Source: Rhodospirillaceae bacterium SYSU D60007
Lineage (GTDB): Bacteria > Pseudomonadota > Alphaproteobacteria > Reyranellales > Reyranellaceae
Direction of reading: 5' to 3'
NCBI GenBank assembly: GCA_003574685.1
Contig: QOCQ01000005.1
Location: 136,127 to 160,126, forward strand
Length of the DNA stretch: 24,000 nucleotides
The position numbers and the translations under genes are program-made. Positions 6,157 through 23,352 of this stretch are shown here, piece after piece. Each line of letters begins with the position of its first letter. Within the stretch, counting starts at the first letter, position 1. The notes beneath the pieces are model-generated. The model had not been told where the DNA came from. It ran no database searches and saw only the letters and a list, made by a program, of their open reading frames with translations.

Positions 6157-7440
6157 TTATAGCTGCACGCCGCCGCGCAGGCCGAAGACGTGCCGGCCAT
6201 AGTCGGCGCCGCCGATGTTCGAGGACCGGCTGATATACCGGTAGCTGGGCCCGAGATAGAAGTTCTCGGTGGGCTGATAGCGCACGCCGACGCTGAACCT
6301 CATGTAGTCGTCGTCGCGGCTGAAGGTACCGGGCACGCCGCGCGCCTTCTTGTAGTCAAGCATGCTGTAGCTGGCGCTGGCGGTCACCTTGATGTTGGGA
6401 CGGAAATCATAGTCCACATCGATGCCGAACACGGTCGACCAGTATCCCGTGAAAGGCAGCAGGATCGTCTCCTCGATCGTCCGCTTGACGTAGGGCCTGA
6501 CCACGACGGTCACCAGCGGGTTCCAGTATCCGGCCAGGCCGAAGATCGGGCCGCGGATCGTGCCCAGACGCGCATCGTCGTAGTCCTGCTCGCGATAGCC
6601 GGCGAAGAACTCGACCTGGGTGATGCCGCCGAAGTCGATCGTGGCGCCACCTACGACCTCCCAGCCGTTGGAGCTGCGCTCAAACCCGGCTCTATCCACC
6701 CGGCGGTCGTAGACGCGCTGGTTCAGGCCGCCCTGCACCCAGATCTCGTACCGTTCAATGAACTCGTACCCCAGCCGCAACGTCTCCGTGTACTCGATCC
6801 GGTCGCGGTCGCGGTTTGCAATCGTGCCCGGGGCGGCTCCCTTGTTGTTGATGTAGGTCAGGTCGTTGATCAGGCCTTCTGCCCGCACGCTGAACCGGTT
6901 GAACTTCTGGTAATAGCCCAGCTTGCCTTCCAGAAGGGTGTATTCATTAGGGGTCCGGAACGACGTCTCGGTCTCGGGCTCGCCGCGCTCGGTATGGAGC
7001 TTGCTGAATTGCAGGCCGCCGTAGACGTTCCAGTTGCGCTGGATATCGATCCGGCCGTCGAAGCCGGCGCGGATATCCTCATAGTTCTCGGAACCGTGGT
7101 CGGCGTACACCCCCGCCGTCGCCGACGCGAACAGGTTCAACATGTGGTTGTTCCAGTTCGAGCGCAGGTTCAGGGAAGGCCGGAAGACCGTGATCAGGTC
7201 GTCCTGCTCGCGGTTCTTGGTGGCAAAGATGTTCGTGTCGTAATACTCGGCGATTTCGAAGGCCGGATAGAGGCGGAACCCGCCGACCGGCAGCCCGATG
7301 GGCTCGTAGCTTTCGCCTTCCCGCGGTTCGGGCCGCGGCGGCCTCGGCTGGAACTGTGCCTGGGCCGTTTCGGCCCAGATGCCGACCGCAAGAGAGGAAG
7401 CGATCAGCGCTGCGACGCTGATCCTTGTCGTATTTGTCAT
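6157..7440 (-). CDS. Outer-membrane beta-barrel protein (BBP2/DUF2320-like by recall)
   Basis: 427 aa with a signal peptide ending AETAQA-QF and a Pro/Glu-rich linker. An amphipathic beta-strand pattern with aromatic girdle residues runs throughout (GGFRLYPAFEIAEYYDTNIF ...). The start is an ATG with GGGGA upstream. Confidence 0.7.
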   Translation of the reverse strand: MTNTTRISVAALIASSLAVGIWAETAQAQFQPRPPRPEPREGESYEPIGLPVGGFRLYPAFEIAEYYDTNIFATKNREQDDLITVFRPSLNLRSNWNNHMLNLFASATAGVYADHGSENYEDIRAGFDGRIDIQRNWNVYGGLQFSKLHTERGEPETETSFRTPNEYTLLEGKLGYYQKFNRFSVRAEGLINDLTYINNKGAAPGTIANRDRDRIEYTETLRLGYEFIERYEIWVQGGLNQRVYDRRVDRAGFERSSNGWEVVGGATIDFGGITQVEFFAGYREQDYDDARLGTIRGPIFGLAGYWNPLVTVVVRPYVKRTIEETILLPFTGYWSTVFGIDVDYDFRPNIKVTASASYSMLDYKKARGVPGTFSRDDDYMRFSVGVRYQPTENFYLGPSYRYISRSSNIGGADYGRHVFGLRGGVQL

Positions 7441-11651: not shown

Positions 11652-12533
11652 CTATCCGGGACTGAGGCGGCGGGCAAGGACCACACGGGGAATGCCGCCC
11701 AAATCCTTGTGGGTGCTGACGGCGCCGAAGCCCGCATCCCGCACCAGACGGGCGACCGCGGCGGCCTGGCCACGCCCCACCTCGAGGGCGACAATCCCGC
11801 CGGGCTGCACCAGATAGCCGAGCTGGCCGACGAGGCGGCGGTAGCAATCCAGCCCGTCGGCGCCGCCGTCCAGCGCCAGCCACGGCTCGTGCTCCGACAC
11901 TTCCGGATCGAGGGTTTCGATGTCGTCACTGGGCACATAGGGCGGATTGGACACCACGACGTCAAACACCTCGGCGATCCCTTCCCCCCAGTCGCCTGAG
12001 CGGAACGCCGCGCGGCCTTCAAGGCCCAGGGCACGGGCGTTCTGGCGGGCTATCACCAGCGCGCGGGCGCTGCGGTCAACGCCAAGCCCCGTCGCCTGCG
12101 GCAACTCGTGGAGCAGCGCCAGCAACAGGCAGCCGGAGCCGACGCCGAGGTCCAGAATGCGCAGCTTCCGGCCGCGATAGGGAACGGCTGCCATCACGGC
12201 ATCGACAAGGGTTTCGCTGTCGGGCCGCGGCGTCAGCACATCCGGGGTGACCCGGAAGCGCAGGCTCCAGAACTCGCGCCATCCCAGGATGTGGGACATG
12301 GGCTCGCGCGCAAGGCGGCGTGCGGCCAGCCGCTCGACCCGCGCCACGACCCCGGCTTCCAGCGGCGCATCGCGGCGGGCGACGATTGTCTCCAGTGTCC
12401 ACCCTGTCGCCTCTGCTACCAGCAGCCGCGCCTCCAGCCGGCTCTCGGCAATGCCCGCCGCGGCGAGCCGGGCCGCCATCGCCTGTACCAGCGCCCCCGC
12501 GGTGGGCTTCGCCCCTGTCTGTTCCCCCGTCAT
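11652..12533 (-). CDS. prmC: Release-factor glutamine N5-methyltransferase PrmC (HemK)
   Basis: 293 aa with the catalytic NPPY motif (VVSNPPYVPS), the SAM-binding motif ILDLGVGSGC, and a HemK N-terminal helical domain. Confidence 0.9.
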   Translation of the reverse strand: MTGEQTGAKPTAGALVQAMAARLAAAGIAESRLEARLLVAEATGWTLETIVARRDAPLEAGVVARVERLAARRLAREPMSHILGWREFWSLRFRVTPDVLTPRPDSETLVDAVMAAVPYRGRKLRILDLGVGSGCLLLALLHELPQATGLGVDRSARALVIARQNARALGLEGRAAFRSGDWGEGIAEVFDVVVSNPPYVPSDDIETLDPEVSEHEPWLALDGGADGLDCYRRLVGQLGYLVQPGGIVALEVGRGQAAAVARLVRDAGFGAVSTHKDLGGIPRVVLARRLSPG

Positions 12534-12653
12534 GCTTTGGCAAGCTGGCCGCCCGCAGTAGCGGATGCAAGAGGCTTGCGCGGCCGGGCGCGGCGTCCAA
12601 CCCCGTCCGCGCGCCGGCCTGGCCCCGCCGGGCTCGCCCGATACAGGGTTGTA

Positions 12654-12702
12654 CCCTTAACGAAGCTCGAGCTTGTCCGTTGCAAGGGACCGCAACTTGC
12701 GG
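12654..12702. promoter_or_regulatory. Cluster of palindromes in the prmC / response-regulator divergent region (candidate operator)
   Basis: A perfect 12-bp palindrome aagctcgagctt (12663-12674) is flanked by ccctt-aacg ... cgtt-gc-aaggg. A second palindrome ccgcaa-c-ttgcgg lies at 12690-12702, 23 nt before ATG 12725. Confidence 0.3.
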
Positions 12703-12724
12703 CCTGCGGCGGACGTTGGGGTAC

Positions 12725-13078
12725 ATGGCATTGCGCGTGTTCGTTGCCGAGGACGAGGTCCTGATCGCCCTGGTCCTGCAGGATATCCTGGAAGAGCTGG
12801 GCCATTCGATCGTCGGCCCTGTGGCACGGGTCGAGGACGCCTGCCGGATTGCCCGCGAGGGCGCGTTCGAACTGGCCATCCTTGACGTCAAGCTGGCCGA
12901 CAGCGACGTCTATCCGGTAGCCGAAATTCTCCAGACCCGCGGCGTTCCCTTTGCCTTCGCTACCGGTTACGGCCGCGACAGCCTTGCGGCCGCCTTCCGG
13001 GCGCGCCCCATCCTGCCCAAGCCCTACACAGAGCCGGACGTGGCCGCCCTCATCCGGCAGATGTGTGACGCTGACTAG
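12725..13078 (+). CDS. Single-domain response regulator of the PFxFATGY ('FAT GUY', SdrG/MrrA-like) family
   Basis: 117 aa, receiver domain only. It has the acidic pocket E9-D10, the phospho-acceptor D54 (AILDVKL, nt 12884-12886), and an exact PFAFATGY motif at residues 75-82 (nt 12947-12970). The track ORF's 135-codon upstream extension has no receiver homology. Confidence 0.85.
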   Translation: MALRVFVAEDEVLIALVLQDILEELGHSIVGPVARVEDACRIAREGAFELAILDVKLADSDVYPVAEILQTRGVPFAFATGYGRDSLAAAFRARPILPKPYTEPDVAALIRQMCDAD

Positions 13079-14774
13079 TCCGCAGCGGCACGACGTTGCC
13101 GGTGCGCATGGCCACCAGCGCGGTTGCCGCCTTGCGCGCGAGCTCGTCCTGGCCGAACGGCTTTCCCAGCACGGCGCTCTCGCCGACATCGCCCAGCGCG
13201 CTGTGGTCGGCAAAGCCGGTAATGAACAGCAGGGCGAGTCCCGGGCGACGCAGCCGCGCCTGGCGGGCAACATCAGCGCCGCTCATCCCGGGCATGGCGT
13301 AGTCCAGGATCATCAGCTCGATTTCCGGCAACCGGTGCAGCATCTCCAGCGCCGCACCACCGCTGCCGGCCTCGTGCACGCGATAGCCGAGATCGCGCAG
13401 CATGGCGGCGGTAACCTCGCGCACGGGATGGTCGTCGTCGACCAGCAGCACCTGCACGCCGGCGAACTGGCCGGCAACCACCGCCGGTGGCGGCGCCTCT
13501 TCGGCACGCTCGCCGGCAGCCGCACGCGGCAGATAGATGCGCGCCGTGGTGCCCTCGCCCTCGCGCGACTTGATGCGGACGCCACCGCCTGACTGCTTGG
13601 CGAAGCCCAGCACCTGGCTGAGCCCGAGCCCCGAGCCCTTGCCGACGTCCTTGGTGGTGAAGAACGGCTCGAATGCCTTGCGCAGCACCATCTCCGACAT
13701 GCCGGTGCCCGTGTCGCTGACGCAGATGGCCACGTACTCTCCGGCGGGCGGCTCCTCGGGCCATGCCGGTGCCTGCAACGTGACATTCTCCGTATGCACG
13801 GTGAGTGTGCCGCCTTGAGTCATGGCATCGCGCGCGTTGATGGCGAGGTTGAGCACCGCCAGCTCAAGCTGTGTGGGATCGACCAGGGCGGGCCACAAAC
13901 CACGCTGCAGGTGCGTATCGATGCGGATGCGGCCACCCATCGTACTCTGCAGCAGGTCGCGCATGCCGGCCACCGAGCCGTTGAGGTCGATCACCTTCGG
14001 CTCCAGCCGCTGACGCCGCGAGAACGCCAGCAACTGGTCCGTCAGCCGGGCGCCGCGCTCAGCCGCCGTGCGCATGTAGCCCAGGCGCTGCATGAGCTTG
14101 CCGTCGACGCCGGCATTGGCCAGCCCCTTCTCCAGGAAGCCGATATTGCCCAGCACCACCGTCAGCAGGTTGTTGAAGTCGTGCGCCACGCCGGACGTGA
14201 GCTGGCCTACCGCTTCCAGCCGCTGCATCTGCCGCAGCGTGCTTTCGATCTTCTCCCGCTCCTCGATCTGGGCCACGAGCTGGCGGTTTGCAGCCGCCAG
14301 CTCAGCCGTGCGCTCCTGCACGCGCAACTCCAGCTCTTCGTTCAGCCGGCGGCTCTCGTGCTGCCGGGTTCGTCCGCGCAGGCCGGTGCGCACGGCGCTG
14401 ATCAGCGTCGTGGGATGAAAGGGCCGCTCCAGAAAGGTGACGTTGCCCAGCGCTCTCATCAGCCCGGCCGCGGCAGGATTGCGCTCGACGCCGCCGCCGT
14501 GGCTGGTCAGCAGCACAAACGGAAAGTCGGACCACGGCGGCTGCGACGCCACCCATTCGCGCAAGGGGCGAAGGTCCTGCCCGCGCAGCGCCTCCTCTGT
14601 CACCACCGCCAGGTCGGCGCCGTAGACAAGGCGCTCGACCAGTTCCGAAATGTCGACGCAGATGTCGCAGCGAAGCGCCGCCTCGCGCAGGATGCTCTTG
14701 GCGACCACGGCATCCCGGCCCCGCGGTGCGAGGATCAGCGTCCGGTCGGCCGCCGGCACTGCAAGGGTAATCAT
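13050..14774 (-). CDS. Hybrid sensor histidine kinase: N-terminal pseudo-receiver, coiled coil, HisKA, HATPase_c, C-terminal receiver
   Basis: 574 aa with H-box VAHDFNNLL, N-box LAINARDAM, G-boxes DTGTGM and GSGLGLS. The C-terminal REC domain has VDDD and ILDYAMPGM. The N-terminal domain of about 120 aa has a receiver-like beta/alpha pattern but lacks the acidic pocket and phospho-Asp (LILAPRGRDA, LAVVTEEAL). There are no TM segments. Its ATG overlaps the kaiC-like stop (ATGA at 14771-14774). Confidence 0.9.
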   Translation of the reverse strand: MITLAVPAADRTLILAPRGRDAVVAKSILREAALRCDICVDISELVERLVYGADLAVVTEEALRGQDLRPLREWVASQPPWSDFPFVLLTSHGGGVERNPAAAGLMRALGNVTFLERPFHPTTLISAVRTGLRGRTRQHESRRLNEELELRVQERTAELAAANRQLVAQIEEREKIESTLRQMQRLEAVGQLTSGVAHDFNNLLTVVLGNIGFLEKGLANAGVDGKLMQRLGYMRTAAERGARLTDQLLAFSRRQRLEPKVIDLNGSVAGMRDLLQSTMGGRIRIDTHLQRGLWPALVDPTQLELAVLNLAINARDAMTQGGTLTVHTENVTLQAPAWPEEPPAGEYVAICVSDTGTGMSEMVLRKAFEPFFTTKDVGKGSGLGLSQVLGFAKQSGGGVRIKSREGEGTTARIYLPRAAAGERAEEAPPPAVVAGQFAGVQVLLVDDDHPVREVTAAMLRDLGYRVHEAGSGGAALEMLHRLPEIELMILDYAMPGMSGADVARQARLRRPGLALLFITGFADHSALGDVGESAVLGKPFGQDELARKAATALVAMRTGNVVPLRTSQRHTSAG

Positions 14775-16288
14775 TCCTCGCTCCCCAACAGTGGAGCCTG
14801 TGTGCCAACATAGGCCGGCACGCCGCGCAGCACGCCCTGGAACGCCTCCAGCGGGGCACCCAGCCTGACGCCGCCCTTCCTGATGCGGAACTCGCGCAGC
14901 GTGTTCTCGTGCGGACCCGTGCGCTTCTTGAGTACGGAAATGGCCCGGCGCACTTCGCCCATCGCTTCGAAAAATCGCAGCAGAATGACCGTGTCCGCGA
15001 GGTAGGTCACGTCGATCGGCTGATCGACGTCGCCGACGAGGCCGTGCTGGGCCACTGTCAGGAATGTCGAGGTGCCGCGGCGGTTGAGATACTGAAGAAG
15101 CTCGTGCAGATGCAGGATACCGAACGGCTCGTTGAGCATTGAGGCCTGGTAGCCGTTCAGGCTGTCGATCGCCACCATCCTGATCGTGTCGCGATCAACG
15201 CAGGTGCGTACGCGGTGGGCGAACTCGCCGGGCGAGACCTCGGCGGCATCAAGCTGCTCAATGGCGAGTCGTCCGTTCCCGTGAAACGCCTCGATGTCGA
15301 TGCCAAGCTGCCGGGCGCGCGAAAAGAGCAGTCCGATCTCCTCGTCGAACAGGAACATCGCGGCATTCTCGCCCCTGGCCATCGCTGCCGCGACGAACTG
15401 CACGAGCAACAGGGTCTTGCCCGTCCCTGCCGGCCCGATGACGAGAGTGCTCGATCCCGCGGTGATGCCGCCGCCCAGCAGTGCGTCCAGATCGCCAATG
15501 CCGCTGCTGATCACGTCACCGGCCGAGCGCTTGCGATATGGCGCCGCCACCAGCCGCGGATACACCTCCACGCCGCCGGAGGAGATCCTGAACTCGTGAT
15601 AGCCGTCGCTGAAAGCCTGGCCACGCGCCTTCACGATGCGCAAGCGGCGGCGCGCGGCACCATAAACCGGCGCCGTCTGGTCGAGATGAAGCACGCTGTG
15701 GGCAATGCTGTGCACGGCCCGGTCCATAGACTCGGCCGTCAGGTCGTCCAGCAGGATGACAGTCGAATTGTGCCGCGCAAAGTAGTGCTTGAGTCCCAGG
15801 ATCTGGCGGCGGTAGCGCAACGAGCTCTGCGCCAGCAAACGGATTTCCGACAGGCTGTCGATCACCACACGCTGCGGGCGGGTGCGTTCGATGGCATCGA
15901 ACATGCGCTGCGTCGTCTCGCCAAGCTCCAGGTCCGAAGAGTAAAGCAGGCTCTGGTGCTGGTCGGGATCAAGCACGCTTTCCGGCGGCACCAGCTCGAT
16001 GATCTCGATCAGCTCGCCCAGCTCCCAGCCATGCGAGCGAGCGCCGGCGCGCAGCTCCGGCTCGGTTTCGGCGAGGCTGACGTAAATGCCGGACTCTCCC
16101 GCCGCAGCGCCGGCCAGCAGGAACTGCAGCGCAATGGTCGTCTTGCCCGTGCCCGGGCTGCCTTCGAGCAGATGAAGGCGATTGCGGGCCAACCCCCCGT
16201 CTGCCACGGCATCAAGGCCCGCAATGCCAGTGAGCGCACGGGGAAGCGCCGTCTCGGCGTTTGTGTCGACAGATGCAGACCTGTTCAT
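14771..16288 (-). CDS. KaiC-like double-domain RecA-superfamily ATPase
   Basis: 505 aa from ATG 16288 (MNRSASVD...). It has two Walker A motifs, GSPGTGKT (nt 16139-16162) and GPAGTGKT, and Walker B-like motifs VVIDSLSE and VAIDSLNG. The KaiC CII-type C-terminal block DTVILLRFFEAMGEVRRAISVLKKRTGPHENTLREFRI is present. The track ORF's 52 extra N-terminal codons run through the predicted promoter. Confidence 0.88.
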   Translation of the reverse strand: MNRSASVDTNAETALPRALTGIAGLDAVADGGLARNRLHLLEGSPGTGKTTIALQFLLAGAAAGESGIYVSLAETEPELRAGARSHGWELGELIEIIELVPPESVLDPDQHQSLLYSSDLELGETTQRMFDAIERTRPQRVVIDSLSEIRLLAQSSLRYRRQILGLKHYFARHNSTVILLDDLTAESMDRAVHSIAHSVLHLDQTAPVYGAARRRLRIVKARGQAFSDGYHEFRISSGGVEVYPRLVAAPYRKRSAGDVISSGIGDLDALLGGGITAGSSTLVIGPAGTGKTLLLVQFVAAAMARGENAAMFLFDEEIGLLFSRARQLGIDIEAFHGNGRLAIEQLDAAEVSPGEFAHRVRTCVDRDTIRMVAIDSLNGYQASMLNEPFGILHLHELLQYLNRRGTSTFLTVAQHGLVGDVDQPIDVTYLADTVILLRFFEAMGEVRRAISVLKKRTGPHENTLREFRIRKGGVRLGAPLEAFQGVLRGVPAYVGTQAPLLGSEE

Positions 16289-16326
16289 GCGCCTGGCTTG
16301 CCTGATTGCTCGCGTCAGATGCGAAG

Positions 16327-16352
16327 AACGTCGCGTACTGCCAACCGGTTCC
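16327..16352 (-). promoter_or_regulatory. EcfG (general stress response ECF sigma)-type promoter upstream of the kaiC-like gene
   Basis: The minus strand reads GGAAC (16352-16348), a 17-nt spacer cggttggcagtacgcga, then CGTT (16330-16327). This is an exact match to the alphaproteobacterial EcfG consensus GGAAC-N16-17-CGTT. The CGTT ends 38 nt upstream of ATG 16288. Confidence 0.55.
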
Positions 16353-16437
16353 AGCCGCCAAACCGCCCCGCCCACGCCCCATTTACCGCGGGCAATCGGC
16401 GGCCCTTGTGGTGAGGGCCGAAGCAGTCGCCGGAAGC

Positions 16438-16476
16438 GCGCCACTCCAGTGGCGCCGGCGGCGTGCCAACGCCGCC
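16438..16476 (-). terminator. Two tandem GC hairpins just after the antiporter stop (possible non-canonical terminator or insulator)
   Basis: The first hairpin is ggcggcg (16457-16463) / cgccgcc (16470-16476) with a 6-nt loop. The second is gcgccac (16438-16444) / gtggcgc (16449-16455) with a 4-nt loop. Neither is followed by a U tract. Confidence 0.35.
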
Positions 16477-16488
16477 ATCATGCGCGGG

Positions 16489-18735
16489 CTAGCTGGACAG
16501 CAGCATGATGGAGCGCGGGGATGCCGCTCCGACGGCCGAGACGATCGGCCCGAATGACAGCCTGTCGCCGGTTCGCGCGCTCACGCCCATGATGAGCAGG
16601 TTGTGATCGCCGCGACGCGCCTGGCGGAGGATGGCGTCGGCCGGCGAAGCATCGTTGCGCAGCGCGGTGCGGACCGCGACGCCGAACTGCTCACCCAGCG
16701 CCACGATGCCCTTGAGGATCTCGTCCGCCTCGCTGCGAGTCCTCACGCGTGGCCAGCGTCGCGGAGAAAACGTGGCAGCTTCCGGCGCCACATAGAGCGC
16801 TGTCACCGTTGCATCACTCGCGCGGGCGATGGCGAGCGCGACCTCCGCGGCACGGCCGGCATAGGCGGTGCCGTTCACCGGCACCAGAATATTCAGATGG
16901 TATCCTGCCGGGTCCTGCGCGTGCGGCCCGCGCGCCGCCACGATGGCAACCGGCCCCTCGAACGGCGCGGCGATCTCGGCCACTGCTTTGGCGAAGTCTC
17001 CCGTCTTGAGGATGGCGCCGTCCACGCCGACGGTCAGCAGGTCGTAGCCCTTGGCCGCCTCGGCGGCGACCAGCTCCGCCGGCATTGCGCTGCCGCGGCG
17101 CGCCGTCACATCTGCCGGCACGTTCGCGCCATCGGCGTCCGGCGCGGCACCGCTGGCGGCGTCGCGGGCGATCTGTTCGGCGTCGGCGTCACGCTCGCGA
17201 TCGGGCGGGCTCCGCCCGGCCTGCGCACTGGCGAGGTCGATCACTGTCACGGGCGTACCTCGCGGACTGGAAAGCAGACCTGTCAGGCGGGCGGCGAGCT
17301 TTCCGCTCGCGCTGCCGTCTGTGACTGCCAGCAGACGTTCCAGCCGTGGCACGAAGCCACGTGCCTCCTGCGCCTCCCGCTCCAGTCGCGCTGCCTCCTC
17401 GGGTTTGAGCGGCAGGCGCGCCAGCGCCCAGCGCAGCGTGGGCGGCATGGCCATGGTCGTAATCACCGCCATGGCGACGATCAGGCTGAACAGGTCGCGG
17501 TCGAGGACGCCAATCGACAATCCGATCGTGGCGACAATGACCTCGGTAGATCCCCGTGCATTCATTCCGCAGGCCAGCGCCAGCGACTCGCGCAATGACA
17601 GCCCACCGATCGTGCCGCCAACAAGCGCGCCGGCGAACTTGCCGATGCTCGCGATCAGGACCAGCCCCAATCCCAGAGCCACGAGCACCGGGTCCTTCAG
17701 GATCGACAGATCAGCGCCGAGCCCCGCGAGGCCGAAAAAGACGGGCATGAAAAAAGCCGTGATCAGGCCCCGGAGCTGCGCGTCAATGTGACGGGTCAGT
17801 ATGGGCGACTGGCCGACGAGGATGCCGGCCACAAAGGCGCCGAGCACGGTGTGAACGCCGATCGCGTGCGTTATCAACGCCATGACGCCCATGACGATGA
17901 TGATGGCCGTAATGACGGGCAGTTCGCTCACGAAGCTGTCGTTCGACCAACGGATAATGGCGGCGACCGCCCGCCGCCCCAGGGTGAAGCTGACGGCCAG
18001 AAAGGCCAGCGTGCCAAGAACGCTTTGTGCAAGAGCGGCAGGCTCAACAGCGCCATGCAAGGCAAGCCCGAAGATCATCGCCATGATGATCCAGCCGATC
18101 GTGTCGTCGATGACGGCAGCGGCGAGGATCACCTGGCCCACGTCGCGCCGCATGAAGTTCATCTCCCGCACGATGACGGCCACGATCTTGACCGAGGAGA
18201 TCGAGAGCGCCACGCCGAGAAACAGCGACGTCAGCAGCCGGCGATCCGGATCGGGCAGCAGTGATTCAGGAAGAAGCTGTCCCAGTGCCACACCGCAAAC
18301 AAACGGCACAGTGATGCCGGCCACTGAAACGCTGACGGCGGCGCGGCGCACCTGGTTGATCAGCGACAGGTCCGTTTCCATGCCCGCAACCAGCAGCAGC
18401 AGCAGAATGCCAAGCTGCGACACCGCCGCCAGCATGCTCTGCTGTACCTCGTTGCGTGGAAACACTTGATGCTGCAGCTCGGGCAGCAGAGCGCCAAAAA
18501 CGGAAGGACCCAGGAGAATGCCGGCAATCAACTGGCCCATGACGGCCGGCTGACCAAGGCGCTGGGCGGCTTCGCCCAGGAGGCGACCCGCCAGCAACAG
18601 CAGCACGATCTGGCCGATGAAGACCGCGATGGCCTGATCGCCGCCAGCCTCGGCGGCGAACGCCGGCGAAACAGACAGGATCGTGGCGAGAGCGGCGGAT
18701 GCGGCGATGAAACCGGCCGCGCACTTCCCGATCAC
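16489..18735 (-). CDS. CPA2-family cation:proton antiporter fused to two C-terminal universal-stress-protein (USP) domains
   Basis: 748 aa from GTG 18735, which forms a GTGA overlap with the upstream stop. It has a signal-like N-terminus (IGKCAAGFIAASAALATILSVSPAFA-AE), a Na_H_exchanger core (GQPAVMGQLIAGILLGPSVFG ...) and two USP-like halves (LAVTDGSASG... and ILVPVNGTAYAGRAAEVAL...NLLIMGVSARTG). Confidence 0.85.
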   Translation of the reverse strand: MIGKCAAGFIAASAALATILSVSPAFAAEAGGDQAIAVFIGQIVLLLLAGRLLGEAAQRLGQPAVMGQLIAGILLGPSVFGALLPELQHQVFPRNEVQQSMLAAVSQLGILLLLLVAGMETDLSLINQVRRAAVSVSVAGITVPFVCGVALGQLLPESLLPDPDRRLLTSLFLGVALSISSVKIVAVIVREMNFMRRDVGQVILAAAVIDDTIGWIIMAMIFGLALHGAVEPAALAQSVLGTLAFLAVSFTLGRRAVAAIIRWSNDSFVSELPVITAIIIVMGVMALITHAIGVHTVLGAFVAGILVGQSPILTRHIDAQLRGLITAFFMPVFFGLAGLGADLSILKDPVLVALGLGLVLIASIGKFAGALVGGTIGGLSLRESLALACGMNARGSTEVIVATIGLSIGVLDRDLFSLIVAMAVITTMAMPPTLRWALARLPLKPEEAARLEREAQEARGFVPRLERLLAVTDGSASGKLAARLTGLLSSPRGTPVTVIDLASAQAGRSPPDRERDADAEQIARDAASGAAPDADGANVPADVTARRGSAMPAELVAAEAAKGYDLLTVGVDGAILKTGDFAKAVAEIAAPFEGPVAIVAARGPHAQDPAGYHLNILVPVNGTAYAGRAAEVALAIARASDATVTALYVAPEAATFSPRRWPRVRTRSEADEILKGIVALGEQFGVAVRTALRNDASPADAILRQARRGDHNLLIMGVSARTGDRLSFGPIVSAVGAASPRSIMLLSS

Positions 18736-19226
18736 AATTTTTCCGGCTTGCTGTCCATCCGATAGCGGAAATCGCAGTGGCTGGCGCCCTGCATGATGGT
18801 TTGCGTGCGCTCCATGGCGATGCGCGGATCGTAGCCCTCGATAAAGGTGCCGTCGCGGTTGCACGACAGAAGATGGCCGATGTCGCCCAGCCCCATCGCG
18901 CGGTACATCTCCGCGTAGCGGCAGCGCGTCACGTTGAAGTCGAGATGCGTCTCGTCCTGCCGCACCGGCTCGATGCGCAGCGCGTCGCCCTGCGTCCAGA
19001 GCGGCTGGATGGCGGCGAAGCTGGCGATCGACGTTCCGCCCGGCGCCTGGGCCGCGAATTGCCGGCCGGCCTCGACGGCGGCCTTCTTTACGGCACGCTC
19101 GATCACACCTTTGGCTGCCGCTTCACCGAACGCTGCCTTCATCTCCTCGTAGATCGGCTTGATGATCTCGGCTTCGATGCGGCGGCGCTCGAGAATGCCC
19201 ATCGGGGCGGCGGCTGGCTGACTCAT
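18732..19226 (-). CDS. L-2-amino-thiazoline-4-carboxylic acid (ATC) hydrolase-family protein
   Basis: 164 aa with an ATG start. The C-terminal Cys-containing block FNVTRCRYAEMYRAMGLGDIGHLLSCNRDGTFIEGYDP...QGASHCDFRY matches my recall of the ATC_hydrolase family. Confidence 0.7.
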   Translation of the reverse strand: MSQPAAAPMGILERRRIEAEIIKPIYEEMKAAFGEAAAKGVIERAVKKAAVEAGRQFAAQAPGGTSIASFAAIQPLWTQGDALRIEPVRQDETHLDFNVTRCRYAEMYRAMGLGDIGHLLSCNRDGTFIEGYDPRIAMERTQTIMQGASHCDFRYRMDSKPEKL

Positions 19227-19271
19227 GGCTGGCTCCGTGGCTGCGAGAACGGCATGGTGATAGGCTGACGC

Positions 19272-20123
19272 ATGCCTTTCAAGTCCGGCACACGCGAGCA
19301 GAGGATGCTGACACGCACTATTCCCGCCAGCGGCGAGGCGTTGCCGGTGATCGGCTGCGGCACCTGGCGCGGCTTCGATGTCGGCAGCGATGCCGGCGCC
19401 CGTGCGCGGCTGGCCGAAGTACTGAAGGTGCTTTTCGCCGCCGGCGGCACGGTGATCGACAGCTCGCCGATGTACGGGACGGCCGAGGGCGTGGTCGGCG
19501 CGCTGCTGACGTCAATGGATCCGCACGCAAAAGCCTTCGTCGCCACCAAGGTATGGACGCAGGGCCGTGCTGCCGGTGTGGCGCAGATGGAGCACAGTCT
19601 TGAGCTCTTGCAGCGGCCGCGTCTGGAGCTGATGCAAATCCACAACCTTGTCGACTGGCGCACGCAGCTTGACACGCTGCGCACCTGGCAGGCCGAGGGG
19701 CGCGTGCGCTACATCGGCATCACCCACTACACAGCCGGCGCCCACGCCGATCTGGAGGCGGTGATCCGGGCCGAGCGGCTCGATTTCGTGCAGCTCAACT
19801 ATTCGCTGGAGGACCGGGCGGCCGAACAGCGCTTGCTGCCGCTTGCCGCCGAACGCGGCGTTGCCGTGCTGGTGAACCGGCCGCTGGGCGGCGGCAGCCT
19901 CGCCCGCGCCCTGCGCGGACGGCCCCTGCCCGGCTGGGCCGCCGATATCGGCTGCACGAGCTGGACGCAGGTGCTGCTGAAGTTCGTGATCTCCCATCCT
20001 GCCGTCACCTGCGTCATCCCCGGCACCGGCGATCCCGCACACATGGCCGACAACGTGCGTGCAGGCCTTGCCCCCCTGCCCGACCCCACCCTGCGCACCC
20101 GCATCGCAGCGGAATGGCCGTAG
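19272..20123 (+). CDS. Aldo/keto reductase
   Basis: It has a GEALPVIGCGTW N-terminal motif, DSSPMYG, and a (beta/alpha)8 AKR pattern through to PGTGDPAHMADN. An alternative start at ATG 19305 (MLTRTIPASG...) is equally plausible. Confidence 0.88.
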   Translation: MPFKSGTREQRMLTRTIPASGEALPVIGCGTWRGFDVGSDAGARARLAEVLKVLFAAGGTVIDSSPMYGTAEGVVGALLTSMDPHAKAFVATKVWTQGRAAGVAQMEHSLELLQRPRLELMQIHNLVDWRTQLDTLRTWQAEGRVRYIGITHYTAGAHADLEAVIRAERLDFVQLNYSLEDRAAEQRLLPLAAERGVAVLVNRPLGGGSLARALRGRPLPGWAADIGCTSWTQVLLKFVISHPAVTCVIPGTGDPAHMADNVRAGLAPLPDPTLRTRIAAEWP

Positions 20124-20159
20124 CTTGCCTTCCCCGCGCGGAGCCGTTACCGCAAAAGC

Positions 20160-20244
20160 CTTCATGGTGAGCTTGTCGAACCATGAAGGCGCCGCAGGAC
20201 CGGCAGTACGGGCCGCTTCATGGTTCGACAGGCTCACCATGAAG
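20160..20244. repeat. Composite REP/MITE-like palindromic element ('MVSLSNHE / SWFDRLTMK' repeat type)
   Basis: Two 29-bp copies lie in inverted orientation: 20160-20188 cttcatggtgagcttgtcgaaccatgaag and 20216-20244 cttcatggttcgacaggctcaccatgaag. They differ by 1 mismatch and are separated by 27 bp. Each copy is itself a 9-bp-stem hairpin. The element sits in a convergent intergenic gap. Confidence 0.8.
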
Positions 20245-20316
20245 CGGTTCTTGACCGTCGCTCGCGTTGAGCGGAGGCACCCGCTAGTCGGGCTCGCCAA
20301 TGACGGTTCGCAGTAC

Positions 20317-21396
20317 TCACGCGCCGCTGAGGCGGACGTCGAAGGTCTTTGTCTCGCCGTTGCGTACCACTTCGACCCTGACAGTGGAGTCGACCGGCGA
20401 CAGCGCCACGCGACTGCGCAGGTCGGAGGCGGAATGCACGGGTCGACCGTCGACCGACACGATGACGTCACCCACGCGCAGGCCCGCCTTCGCTGCACCC
20501 GATCCGGGCTCGACCTGCTGGATGCGCACGCCCAACCGGCCGCTGGCATCGGGCACCGTGTCGCTGACCAGCACGCCCAGGCGCGCGTACTGTACCTTGC
20601 CGGTGCGCACGATCTGGTCCATCACCGCGCGCGCAATGTTGGTGGGCACGGCAAAGCCAATGCCGACATTGCCGCCGCCCGGCGCGATGATCGCCGAGTT
20701 GATCCCGACCAGCCGTCCGTAGAGGTCGATCAGTGCGCCGCCCGAGTTGCCGGGATTGATCGGCGCATCGGTCTGGATGAAGTTCTCTAGCCGCCCGTTT
20801 CCCAGCCCGCTACGGCTGAGCCCGCTGACAATGCCTGCCGTTACCGTCTGGCCGATGCCGAACGGATTGCCGATGGCAACCACGTAGTCACCCACCTTCA
20901 GCGCGTCGGAATTGCCCAGCGGGATTGCCGACAGCCGCTCCGTCGGAATGCGCAGGACGGCGATGTCGCTGGTGCTGTCGGCACCCACGAGCTCGGCGTT
21001 CAGCACGCGCCGGTCCGACAGGGTGACGCGGATCTGCTGCGCATTGGCCACGACATGGGCGTTGGTCAGCACGTAGCCGCGGCTGGCATCGACGATCACG
21101 CCGGAGCCCGCCGCCAGCGCCGCCCGCCCGCGCGGCTCCGGCTGGGACTGCCCGAAGAAGCGGCGGAACAGCGGATCGCGCAGCAGCGGATTCTGCTGCT
21201 GTGGCACGTTCTGCACCACCGCCACACTGACCACGGCGGGCATGACGCGCTCGACCAGCGGTGCGAGTGTCGGCACGCCATCGCGCATCAGCGGCAGCGA
21301 ACCGACATCGCGCTGCGCCAGGGCCGGCGCCGTTACGAGAATCAGCAGCGGCAGGATCAGGCGCCCGCCGCGACGCACCAGGATCGACAGGAACAT
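20317..21396 (-). CDS. S1C (HtrA/DegS-like) periplasmic serine protease with one PDZ domain
   Basis: 359 aa with a signal peptide ending APALA-QR. The catalytic triad contexts are TNAHVV, SDIAVL and GNSGGAL. A single C-terminal PDZ domain is present (GSGAAKAGLRVGDVIVSVDG). Confidence 0.9.
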   Translation of the reverse strand: MFLSILVRRGGRLILPLLILVTAPALAQRDVGSLPLMRDGVPTLAPLVERVMPAVVSVAVVQNVPQQQNPLLRDPLFRRFFGQSQPEPRGRAALAAGSGVIVDASRGYVLTNAHVVANAQQIRVTLSDRRVLNAELVGADSTSDIAVLRIPTERLSAIPLGNSDALKVGDYVVAIGNPFGIGQTVTAGIVSGLSRSGLGNGRLENFIQTDAPINPGNSGGALIDLYGRLVGINSAIIAPGGGNVGIGFAVPTNIARAVMDQIVRTGKVQYARLGVLVSDTVPDASGRLGVRIQQVEPGSGAAKAGLRVGDVIVSVDGRPVHSASDLRSRVALSPVDSTVRVEVVRNGETKTFDVRLSGA

Positions 21397-21488
21397 CGGT
21401 AACCTCGGGAGCCTCGCCGGAGGCCCCTGATGTTGACGCGGAAAATGGCGCTCGCAAGGCAGACGACCTTAATGCCCCGCCGCCCTGG

Positions 21489-22220
21489 CTAGCGCAGCAA
21501 CAGGCGGAGGCCGGCGAGGGCCAGGATCACGGCCAGCATGTAGCGCGTGAGCCGGTTGGTCATCACGTGGCGTGCGATGGTGCCGCCCAGCGCTGCGCCG
21601 AACAGGGCGGCGCCGGCGTAAAGCGCGATGCCAGGCGCGACCGGTTGGCCCGCGAGCGTCACGGCGGCCAGGCCGACCGCCGAGTTGGCGAGAATGTAGG
21701 GTGCCGACAGCGCGGCGACCTGCCGGGGCGTGCCCCAGCCGAGCAGGATGATCAGCGGTGCCAGGAAGGCGCCGCCGCCGATGCCGGTCAGACCGGCAAG
21801 GAAGCCGGTGACCGCGCCCGCCAGCAGCGCTGGCCCGGTGCCGACAGGGCGGACCGCCGCAGTGTCGGCGCCGCGCTTCAGCAGCATGAGGCCGGCGGCC
21901 GCCAGCAGCAGAACGCCGGTCAGCACCAGGTAGAGTCCGCCATCGAGCAGCACCAGCCCGCCGGCGAAGGCGGCCGGCAGCGCCGGCACAAGGAAACGGC
22001 CCAGCAGCGTCCAGTCGATGCGGCCGTCGCGGTGCAGCCATAACGTAGCGTAACCCGCCGCCACCACGTTGAGCAGCAGTGCCGTCGGCCGCATCTGCTC
22101 GGCTGGAAAGCCGGCCAGTGCCATGGCGGCGAGAAACGCCGTGCCGCCCGCCTGCCCGGCGGTAGCGTAGAGCAGCGCCAGCGCGGCGAAGATTACCGCC
22201 AGCGACGCCTGGCCGCTCAT
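21489..22220 (-). CDS. TauE/SafE-family (DUF81) anion/sulfite exporter-type permease
   Basis: 243 aa from ATG 22220; the track start at 22232 is a TTG. It is a polytopic Gly/Ala/Leu-rich membrane protein with the two-fold repeat typical of TauE/SafE. Confidence 0.82.
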   Translation of the reverse strand: MSGQASLAVIFAALALLYATAGQAGGTAFLAAMALAGFPAEQMRPTALLLNVVAAGYATLWLHRDGRIDWTLLGRFLVPALPAAFAGGLVLLDGGLYLVLTGVLLLAAAGLMLLKRGADTAAVRPVGTGPALLAGAVTGFLAGLTGIGGGAFLAPLIILLGWGTPRQVAALSAPYILANSAVGLAAVTLAGQPVAPGIALYAGAALFGAALGGTIARHVMTNRLTRYMLAVILALAGLRLLLR

Positions 22221-22275
22221 CGCGGCACGCAACGCACGCGCCTGCGGGCGCGCAGCCCGGTGGCCGCGCTCCGCC

Positions 22276-23352
22276 TCACGCCTCGACGTCGGCGAGGCGC
22301 GCAGCCTCGTCGTCAGCGATCAGCGCCTCGACGATCTTGTCGAGCGACGAGCCGTCCATGACCTTGTCGAGCTCATAGAGCGTCATGTTGATGCGGTGAT
22401 CGGTGCAGCGCCCCTGGGGGAAGTTGTAGGTGCGTATGCGTTCGCTGCGATCGCCGCTGCCGACCTGGCCACGGCGTGAGGCCGCGCGTTCCGCATCGAG
22501 CCGCTGCCGCTCGGCCTCGTAAAGGCGCGCGCGCAGGATCTTCATCGCCTTGGCCTTGTTCTTGTGCTGGCTCTTCTCGTCCTGCTGGCTGACGACAATA
22601 CCGGTCGGCAGATGCGTGATGCGCACCGCGCTGTCGGTGGTGTTGACCGACTGGCCGCCCGGCCCCGACGAGCGGAAGACATCGATGCGCAGATCCTTGT
22701 CGTCAATCCTGATGTCCACCTCTTCGGCCTCAGGCAGCACGGCTACCGTCGCCGCCGAGGTGTGGATGCGGCCCTGTGCCTCGGTGGCAGGCACGCGCTG
22801 CACGCGGTGCACGCCCGACTCGAACTTCAGCCGCGCGAACACGTCCTTGCCGGTGATCTCGGCCACGGCCTCGCGGTAGCCGCCCAGGCCCGTCTCCGAA
22901 ATCTCCATGATCTCGAACTTCCAGCCGCGCAGGGCCGCATAGCGCTGATACATGCGAAACAGATCCGACGCGAACAGCGCCGCCTCCTCGCCGCCGGTGC
23001 CGGCGCGCACCTCGAGGATGGCGTTGCGGGAATCGGCTTCATCGCGCGGCAGCAGCATGAGCTTGATCTGCCTGTCGAGCGCCGGCACGCGGTCCTTCAG
23101 GGCCGCGAACTCCTCCTCGGCCATGGCCTTCATGTCGCGGTCGGTGGCCGGATCGGCGATCATTGCCGCCAGGTCGCCCGCCTCCTTCTGCGCCTTGCGC
23201 AGTGCGGCCACGGCATCGACCAGCGGCGTGAGATCGGCATATTCCTTCGAAACCTGGCCGAACTTCGCCGCATCCAGCGTGCCGGCCGACAGCATGGCCT
23301 GCAGCTCGGCATGCCGGTGCACGACCTGGTCCAGTTTGGCATCCAGCGACAT
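22276..23352 (-). CDS. prfA: Peptide chain release factor 1
   Basis: 358 aa with the GGQ motif ([20 protein letters not shown]). The RF1-type PxT tripeptide is read as PAT in [16 protein letters not shown]. The whole length looks RF1-like. Confidence 0.95.

Follow-up and report, generated by a model that had tools for sequence, protein, structure and literature searches.

A KaiC-like ATPase gene paired with a gene for a hybrid histidine kinase with a predicted pseudo-receiver domain, a KaiB-less locus in a Reyranellaceae genome

We analyzed a 24,000-nucleotide (nt) stretch of Rhodospirillaceae bacterium SYSU D60007 (Reyranellaceae; assembly GCA_003574685.1, contig QOCQ01000005.1, positions 136,127 to 160,126 of the forward strand), hereafter the window, in which a gene for a KaiC-like ATPase is followed directly by a gene for a soluble hybrid histidine kinase. 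We consider, with moderate confidence, that the two genes make up a self-contained KaiC-to-histidine-kinase signaling module of the KaiB-less class, in which the N-terminal domain of the kinase, a predicted pseudo-receiver, would couple the ATPase to the kinase. The locus is one more member of a class described in 2011 and widespread in soil bacteria, that of a kaiC lacking kaiB and paired with an Nt_HK kinase (De Luca et al. 2011), to which it is assigned by the Thr-Tyr (TY) residues at the phosphosites of the KaiC-like protein and by the kinase gene immediately downstream. An earlier note on this DNA had implied that the arrangement was novel; both the module and the hypothesis had already appeared in print (PMC3164672), and what is new here is modest, namely the assignment of a pseudo-receiver fold, the size of the domain family, its phyletic breadth, and a predicted link to the general stress regulon.

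The first 150 residues of the kinase match no Pfam or NCBIfam model, and the same holds for the 17 homologues scanned. An AlphaFold2 model of this N-terminal domain (N-domain), built with 56 homologues, reached a predicted local distance difference test (pLDDT) score of 90 and a predicted template modeling (pTM) score of 0.85, and has five alternating strands and helices, the fifth helix continuing as a long linker helix. The top 50 matches listed in a Foldseek comparison of this model with the Protein Data Bank (PDB) were receiver domains or receiver-containing constructs, with template modeling (TM) scores of 0.6-0.8. Sequence comparisons are in accord with the fold: a profile of the N-domain finds the FixJ receiver (E 2e-4), and profile-profile comparison with canonical receivers using hhalign gives a 95% probability (E 3.5e-8). 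The hhalign alignment places A16/P17 at CheY D12/D13, E60 at the phospho-accepting D57 and R117 at K109, leaving T90 (CheY T87) as the sole residue of the catalytic quintet that is kept. Because a receiver fold here carries substitutions at four of the five catalytic sites, the N-domain is, on model and alignment, a pseudo-receiver with a degenerate active site. This agrees with the earlier note, which had described a receiver-like domain that has lost its acidic pocket and phospho-accepting aspartate, as opposed to a normal phosphorylatable receiver. Two other assignments were rejected: a copy of the kinase's own receiver, to which the N-domain has no detectable similarity (E about 1), and a SasA/KaiB-like thioredoxin fold, given the five alternating strands and helices of the model and the receivers that fill the top 50 PDB matches listed.

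Of the N-domain residues most conserved across 158 diverse members of the family, one group lies in the strand-to-helix loops (P17, G19, R20 and D21; E60/E61; T90; and E116, R117, P118, F119, H120 and P121), which form the active-site face in true receivers. Two further groups are a QPxWSD loop, in which Q78 and W81 never vary and S82 and D83 reach 99% conservation, and a basic stripe on helix 5 (R133, R135, R137, Q138 and R142). This pattern of sequence conservation fits a protein-binding module. The family is large, a profile search against 1.84 billion cluster representatives giving 3,810 clusters (50% identity) at E<=1e-10. Of the 150 best profile matches, nearly all have the domain beginning within the first few residues, and all ten family members sampled are histidine kinases. 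Behind the constant N-domain the kinase part varies: it is of the HisKA or HWE type, and PAS domains, GAF domains and a C-terminal receiver may each be present or absent. Public annotations call these proteins "response regulator," "ATP-binding protein" or "PAS domain-containing sensor histidine kinase." A domain family of this size outside the coverage of Pfam and NCBIfam is an annotation gap.

The pairing with a KaiC-like gene is conserved across phyla. A scan of a species-level genome collection with a single KaiC-like protein returned nine loci, a number sufficient for diversity but not for statistics, and these were supplemented with plasmid records and exact-protein look-ups. The N-domain gene lies directly after the KaiC-like gene in all nine genome loci (from Alphaproteobacteria, Gemmatimonadales, Verrucomicrobia, and Terriglobia), and the KaiC-like gene adjoins it upstream in seven of seven annotated plasmid loci, from Agrobacterium, Sinorhizobium, Sphingomonas, Bradyrhizobium, Phenylobacterium, Pacificitalea, and one record labeled Roseateles (organism unverified). 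It is also immediately upstream in the three close relatives found by exact-protein look-up, and in five more plasmid records the adjacency was read from coordinates in two match tables alone. Independent KaiB-less syntenic loci number 21, from Alphaproteobacteria, Betaproteobacteria, Gemmatimonadota, Verrucomicrobiota, and Terriglobia, representing four phyla and including many plasmids. In a set of 72,556 plasmids, 232 records encode the N-domain and 264 the KaiC-like protein, and the tallies by genus are nearly identical; the identities of the two proteins to their window counterparts also co-vary (r = 0.89, n = 15). All 21 linked loci have TY, SY or SF at the phosphosite positions. Since the genes around the pair differ completely between loci, the two-gene cassette is itself the conserved unit. 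A dedicated coupling domain would be expected to show just this combination: an N-terminal module that stays constant, a transmitter that varies, and a KaiC-like gene that is always adjacent. The earlier note had proposed the ATPase as the input of the kinase through its N-domain and had looked to co-occurrence of the two genes as support; the pair conservation in the 21 loci, the uniform gene order in the genome, plasmid and close-relative sets, and the co-varying identities favor that proposal.

Three loci call for separate mention. On the Sinorhizobium meliloti megaplasmid (L013) a divergent version runs from a KaiC-like gene to an HWE kinase with the N-domain and then to a response regulator; at 6886 (+), inside the 3' end of the kinase gene and about 145 nt upstream of the regulator gene, this locus has an exact EcfG/RpoE2-type motif. 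A plasmid locus of Agrobacterium tumefaciens F2 (L020, 4950-6769) was rejected as a class member, its KaiC being 28-30% identical and followed by a normal stand-alone receiver. The L020 KaiC has SG at the phosphosites, its gene overlaps the downstream canonical receiver gene, and the arrangement corresponds to De Luca's third kaiC context; it hints, at the level of sequence, that a receiver-fold partner is older than the fusion to a kinase. A weak partial N-domain match in Paraburkholderia caribensis (L018), with no KaiC-like gene within 5 kb upstream, was also rejected and is probably an ordinary receiver or an unannotated case.

No match to KaiB at E<=10 was obtained by tblastn in the 24-kb window using a Pfam-verified KaiB query, and neither the KaiB nor the KaiA Pfam family is present in the precomputed list for the 10 kb on either side on the source contig. 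Likewise, none of the 21 independent loci outside the window has kaiB (no match better than E 2). The earlier note had reported neither kaiA nor kaiB in the window and had regarded a kaiB gene consistently next to orthologous loci as grounds for abandoning its proposal; the searches uphold the former and did not turn up the latter. We accordingly rejected membership of the KaiABC or KaiBC oscillators, the locus having no adjacent kaiB and T428/Y429, not S431/T432, at the phosphosites.

Residues 9-495 of the KaiC-like protein align with solved KaiC structures (E 1e-51 to 1e-61). The Walker A motifs of both domains are intact (GSPGTGKT from residue 43 and GPAGTGKT from residue 285), with both lysines, K49 and K291, present, and the catalytic glutamate pair of CII is kept as E316/E317 (KaiC E318/E319). 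By alignment, the phosphosite pair is T428/Y429 in place of the S431/T432 of oscillator KaiC. Scores against the NCBIfam KaiC models fall below the cut-offs (NF006799, 271 bits against 408; TIGR02655, 186 against 546), and for this reason the protein is classed, on its sequence, as KaiC-like and not as a KaiC orthologue. An identical 505-amino-acid (aa) protein is called on public contigs, among them a metagenomic contig of 413 kb that the window matches; because of this call, and because the sole promoter-like motif sits between the ATG at 16288 and the upstream in-frame GTG, that ATG is the correct start of the gene. The segment equivalent to the KaiC A-loop (window 14774-14870, minus strand) reads F.GVL.GVP..(Y/F).G...PLL and is conserved across phyla (L001-L025), after which comes a short variable tail; it is absent from the divergent S. 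meliloti type. Its sequence makes it a possible docking peptide for the partner kinase.

The kinase has the H-box histidine, the ATP-binding domain and a receiver with the full catalytic quintet that define a HisKA-type hybrid histidine kinase. A Pfam and NCBIfam scan found neither PAS nor GAF domains in it, and it has no hydrophobic segment. The 4-nt overlap between the KaiC-like and kinase genes recurs in L001, L008, L017, L021, L023, and L025; most other loci have an overlap or a gap of less than 25 nt, and in L004 and L009 about 70 nt separate the two genes. To judge from this organization, the two genes are probably co-transcribed and translationally coupled. The anatomy of the locus (table 1) thus bears out the earlier description of a two-domain KaiC-type ATPase with duplicated Walker A motifs, joined by an ATGA stop/start overlap to a soluble 574-aa kinase that has HisKA, HATPase_c and canonical receiver domains and lacks any PAS, GAF or transmembrane sensor.

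Table 1. Features of the KaiC-like/kinase locus, in window coordinates
Feature	Position (nt)	Strand	Protein or residues	Basis and remarks
KaiC-like gene	14771-16288	-	505 aa	Pfam KaiC PF06745, two stretches, E 4e-72
CI domain of KaiC-like protein	15554-16231	-	about aa 20-245	
CII domain of KaiC-like protein	14804-15520	-	about aa 257-495	
Codons of T428 and Y429 (equivalents of KaiC phosphosites S431/T432)	15002-15007	-	T428, Y429	alignment to S. elongatus KaiC
ATGA stop/start overlap of KaiC-like and kinase genes	14771-14774	-		read from sequence; preceded by GAGGA
Kinase gene	13050-14774	-	574 aa	soluble hybrid histidine kinase
Predicted pseudo-receiver N-domain of kinase	14325-14774	-	aa 1-150	AlphaFold2, Foldseek, hhalign
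HisKA	14010-14210	-	aa 189-255; H198	Pfam PF00512, E 1.4e-8; AHDFNN from residue 197
HATPase_c	13521-13880	-	aa 299-418	Pfam PF02518, E 2e-19; N, G1 and G2 box motifs located
Canonical C-terminal receiver	13131-13451	-	aa 442-548; D446-448, D491, T519, K538	Pfam PF00072, E 5.4e-18
Predicted EcfG-type promoter motif, GGAAC-N17-CGTT	16327-16352	-		3' end 38 nt upstream of the KaiC-like ATG
Single-domain response regulator, FATGUY (PFAFATGY)	12731-13078	+	115 aa	Pfam Response_reg, NCBIfam PhyR-family receiver; motif from residue 73

Upstream of the KaiC-like gene is a match to GGAAC-N16-17-CGTT, the consensus for EcfG, the alphaproteobacterial general stress sigma factor. It is the single match in the window, against 0.19 expected. 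The same type of motif lies directly upstream of the KaiC-like gene in three of four independent close relatives (L001, from 1303; L021, from 5940; L023, from 5907), where it is again the only match in each locus, and the spacers are unrelated in sequence. No sigma-70-like promoter was found in 12400-16700, and terminator-like matches bounding the operon are at chance level. In the closest sub-clade the operon is probably transcribed from the predicted EcfG-type promoter.

Convergent with the kinase gene, and overlapping its 3' end by 29 nt, is a gene for a single-domain response regulator that was missing from the earlier note. The product has the motif PFxFATG[G/Y] in a stand-alone receiver, as do SdrG and MrrA, and this is the definition of the FATGUY family, whose members are phosphorylation hubs in the general stress response (PMC5964349). 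Stress genes also lie beside other members of the class (Hsp20, GroES/GroEL, BON, OsmC, CspA, DnaJ-like and Bax-inhibitor), and on the source contig the cassette has both housekeeping and stress genes as neighbors (prfA, a DegP-like protease, a Na/H exchanger fused to universal stress protein (Usp) domains, prmC, and clpB).

If the module works as we propose, the KaiC-like protein would be a double-ring RecA-type ATPase and autokinase acting as a sensor or integrator hexamer, with a state set by its nucleotide load and by phosphorylation at T428, possibly also at Y429. That state would drift with energy status, temperature, or the duration of a stress or elapsed time. The pseudo-receiver, having Glu at the phospho-Asp position, would not be phosphorylated on aspartate and would instead be the domain on which the KaiC-like protein docks and through which it exerts allosteric control. 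We infer that the pseudo-receiver is the contact surface and that control runs from the ATPase to the kinase. The effect of KaiC binding would travel along the long helix 5 and its linker helix into the HisKA bundle and alter autophosphorylation of H198. From there the phosphoryl group would be handed to D491, in the receiver of the kinase itself, and then to further partners, possibly including the adjacent FATGUY regulator. Since the operon is probably transcribed from an EcfG-type promoter in the closest sub-clade, the physiological role there would be adaptation to stress rather than a circadian clock. KaiC-kinase binding, phosphorylation at equivalent sites and stress phenotypes are established for homologues, and by analogy may extend to the window pair.

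Several observations weigh against this proposal. Binding of KaiC to its kinase is known from the Pseudomonas homologues and is carried over by analogy to the window pair, which is known from its sequence alone; moreover, Terrettaz et al. label the Pseudomonas fragment that binds a PAS domain, not a pseudo-receiver. At the position of the KaiC glutamate pair E77/E78, the CI domain has A73/E74 and so keeps one glutamate, in line with a Ser/Ala-Glu pattern across the KaiC-like clade; given this single catalytic Glu, the ATPase properties of CI may depart from those of canonical KaiC. The EcfG-type motif is confined to the closest sub-clade, being absent or present only in relaxed form in L025 and more distant loci. 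In two studies of EcfG (Bradyrhizobium diazoefficiens and Sphingomonas melonis) the supplementary tables contain no entry for KaiC or "circadian," so that the evidence for EcfG control is the motif itself. The FATGUY motif was absent from all other loci examined, and because no other member has such a neighbor the link of this regulator to the KaiC-kinase module may be fortuitous and its membership is uncertain. Finally, the kaiB negative covers the window and its 10-kb flanks, not the whole genome.

Of the explanations that compete with an ATPase-to-kinase module, reverse wiring deserves the most attention. Here the kinase would stand upstream and the KaiC-like ATPase would be its effector or target, recruited by the pseudo-receiver for modulation of its phosphorylation or its action on clients. 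Neither the synteny nor the binding data carry a direction, and a KaiC with no KaiA or KaiB to reset it may need a partner for its kinase/phosphatase balance. The conserved basic stripe on helix 5 would be compatible with such a role, as would the conserved C-terminal F.GVL.GVP...PLL of KaiC, equivalent to the loop on which KaiA acts. However, a kinase of this minimal architecture has no other sensor domain and would be left without an input, and the position of kaiC first in the gene order, together with a pseudo-receiver where a sensor domain usually sits, favors KaiC as the input; we therefore regard the reverse direction as rather unlikely. We also think it unlikely that the pseudo-receiver senses a small ligand, such as a nucleotide second messenger, in the manner of ShkA and cyclic di-GMP (c-di-GMP), with KaiC linked functionally and docking elsewhere. 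Ligand-binding pseudo-receivers do exist (ShkA, CikA, and KaiA; PMC12632262), and the remodeled pocket, rich in invariant R20, D21, E60/E61 and R117, could hold a phosphate-bearing ligand. Yet a generic ligand sensor would have no need of the KaiC-like gene that accompanies the domain in every locus examined, the identities of the two proteins co-vary, and the N-terminal 138 residues of the Pseudomonas kinase are enough to pull down KaiC.

A true timekeeping function, whether a KaiB-independent hourglass or a damped oscillator with the kinase as a SasA-like output, was proposed for the class by De Luca et al. and draws on the hydroxyl residues at both phosphosites (here T428/Y429) and on the shift of Pseudomonas KaiC phosphorylation with culture age. 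We find it improbable for the window locus, where neither KaiB nor KaiA turned up in the 24 kb or in the 10 kb on either side, gene context and promoter motif point to stress, and the tyrosine at the second site and single CI glutamate depart from the oscillator design; in Pseudomonas, too, phosphorylation tracked culture age and not circadian cues. The possibility that the N-domain is an ordinary phospho-accepting receiver in a receiver-kinase-receiver phosphorelay, with kaiC next to it by accident, is hardly credible. The fold is indeed that of a receiver, and at the site that aligns with the phospho-Asp about 17% of the family carry an Asp, but the window kinase has four of five catalytic positions changed, at least 90% of the family have Ala-Pro in place of the metal-binding Asp-Asp, PF00072 fails to detect the domain, and adjacency to kaiC is conserved across phyla.

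A more specific version of the ATPase-to-kinase module can be put forward tentatively, and at low probability, for the Bradyrhizobium-like sub-clade, in which the KaiC-like ATPase and the pseudo-receiver kinase might form a feedback timer within the general stress response. Sigma-EcfG would switch the operon on, and KaiC would integrate energy state or elapsed time through phosphorylation of T428. The pocket of the pseudo-receiver (R20, D21, E60/E61, T90 and R117) would read the phosphorylation or nucleotide state of KaiC directly, and phosphoryl groups would flow from the kinase to PhyR-controlling regulators of the FATGUY type. Were this version true, a KaiC protein would set the duration or the memory of a stress response.

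Pairs of this kind are probably the commonest use of KaiC-type ATPases outside the cyanobacteria, the partner domain alone amounting to about 3,800 clusters and having been seen in five bacterial lineages. The way in which a histidine kinase is governed by an ATPase ring when KaiA and KaiB are both missing bears on the evolution of the cyanobacterial clock from simpler signal processors. The analysis offers three leads in this respect: the coupling domain would be a receiver fold with Glu at the phospho-Asp position, it lacks a model in Pfam and NCBIfam, and the module may be part of the wiring of the alphaproteobacterial general stress response.

Some features of the wider neighborhood are recorded here for completeness. 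Directly upstream of the KaiC-like gene is the gene for the Na+/H+ exchanger fused to two universal stress protein domains (16489-18864, minus strand), and an nhaA gene is also found near the distant KaiC of the Agrobacterium plasmid (L020). The genes prfA and prmC are often adjacent in bacteria; in the window, prfA (22276-23352, minus strand) and prmC (11652-12533, minus strand) are about 10 kb apart, and between them lie genes for a TauE-like protein, the DegP-like protease, an aldo-keto reductase, an ATC hydrolase and the Na/H exchanger-Usp fusion, as well as the kaiC-kinase pair and the response regulator. Because G+C content is uniform, there is no sign of recent transfer in this interval (11652-23352).

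De Luca et al. (2011), in the genome paper of Ramlibacter tataouinensis, compared the contexts of kaiC genes and defined a "second context" in which a specific histidine kinase comes after kaiC, the genome has no kaiB, and the phosphosites are SY, TY or SF (PMC3164672). Their pair, the KaiC Rta_04330 and the "Nt_HK" kinase Rta_04340 with its RtaNt domain, was found by reverse transcription PCR to be co-transcribed, and RtaNt, which has weak receiver similarity (E 5e-5), was proposed as a KaiC-interaction module (PMC3164672). The window locus is alike in having kaiC and then the kinase, TY phosphosites, no kaiB found in the region searched, and a weakly receiver-like N-domain, and architectures listed for their family, such as Nt-PAS-GAF-HK-REC, also occur in the N-domain family. 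De Luca et al. likened RtaNt to KaiB and to the N terminus of SasA as well as to receivers (PMC3164672), whereas the model of the window N-domain has a receiver fold and is not thioredoxin-like. They favored an hourglass role, noting that both phosphosite positions keep hydroxyl residues (PMC3164672), while the context in the window suggests a role in general stress.

Terrettaz et al. (2022) reported that KaiB-less KaiC proteins of Pseudomonas, among them the systems of P. putida (PP_3834/PP_3835) and P. protegens CHA0, are encoded beside histidine or hybrid kinases, often with a single-domain regulator nearby, and that their closest relatives outside Pseudomonas are in the Rhizobiales (bioRxiv 10.1101/2022.01.26.477890). 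In their hands KaiC bound the kinase in two-hybrid and co-immunoprecipitation assays, residues 1-138 of the kinase being sufficient, KaiC was associated with stress-resistance phenotypes, and its phosphorylation tracked culture age (bioRxiv 10.1101/2022.01.26.477890). The window locus resembles these systems in its KaiC without KaiB, its kinase in the same operon and its nearby single-domain regulator, but the CsrA or exopolysaccharide (EPS) sortase genes associated with Pseudomonas groups are both absent. We infer that the window N-domain is the same domain as the N termini of the Ramlibacter and Pseudomonas kinases; for Ramlibacter this is favored indirectly by the comparably weak receiver similarity (E 2e-4 with FixJ for the N-domain, E 5e-5 for RtaNt) and by the occurrence of the N-domain in Betaproteobacteria. 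An alphaproteobacterial parallel is the kaiC2-kaiR2 pair of Methylobacterium extorquens AM1 (Iguchi et al. 2018, as summarized in PMC8069551), in which phosphorylation of KaiC2 at S426 controls UV and temperature resistance and leaf colonization. It too is a kaiC without adjacent kaiB, followed by a regulator gene, and its KaiC2 has a single phosphoserine at the S431-equivalent position.

The earlier note had drawn an analogy with the docking of clock-output kinases on the cyanobacterial Kai complex. The theme itself holds, in that SasA and CikA are kinases whose activity depends on Kai docking through a noncatalytic domain at the N or C terminus, a pseudo-receiver in the case of CikA, and by analogy the window kinase may be another. 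The particulars do not carry over: the pseudo-receiver of CikA has KaiB, and not KaiC itself, as its docking partner (PMC12632262), and SasA binds KaiC CI through a thioredoxin-like (KaiB-like) domain, from which the window N-domain differs in fold. Unlike that of CikA, moreover, the window pseudo-receiver is N-terminal and feeds straight into the kinase helix, in a locus where neither KaiA nor KaiB was found. Pseudo-receivers that bind ligands are known in ShkA, CikA and KaiA (PMC12632262), and the window kinase shares with ShkA-type hybrid kinases a degenerate receiver, which in ShkA controls autophosphorylation and the intramolecular relay (PMC12632262). In ShkA the pseudo-receiver is a c-di-GMP-binding domain with the kinase core on one side and the receiver on the other, whereas that of the window kinase is N-terminal and tied to a KaiC-like gene.

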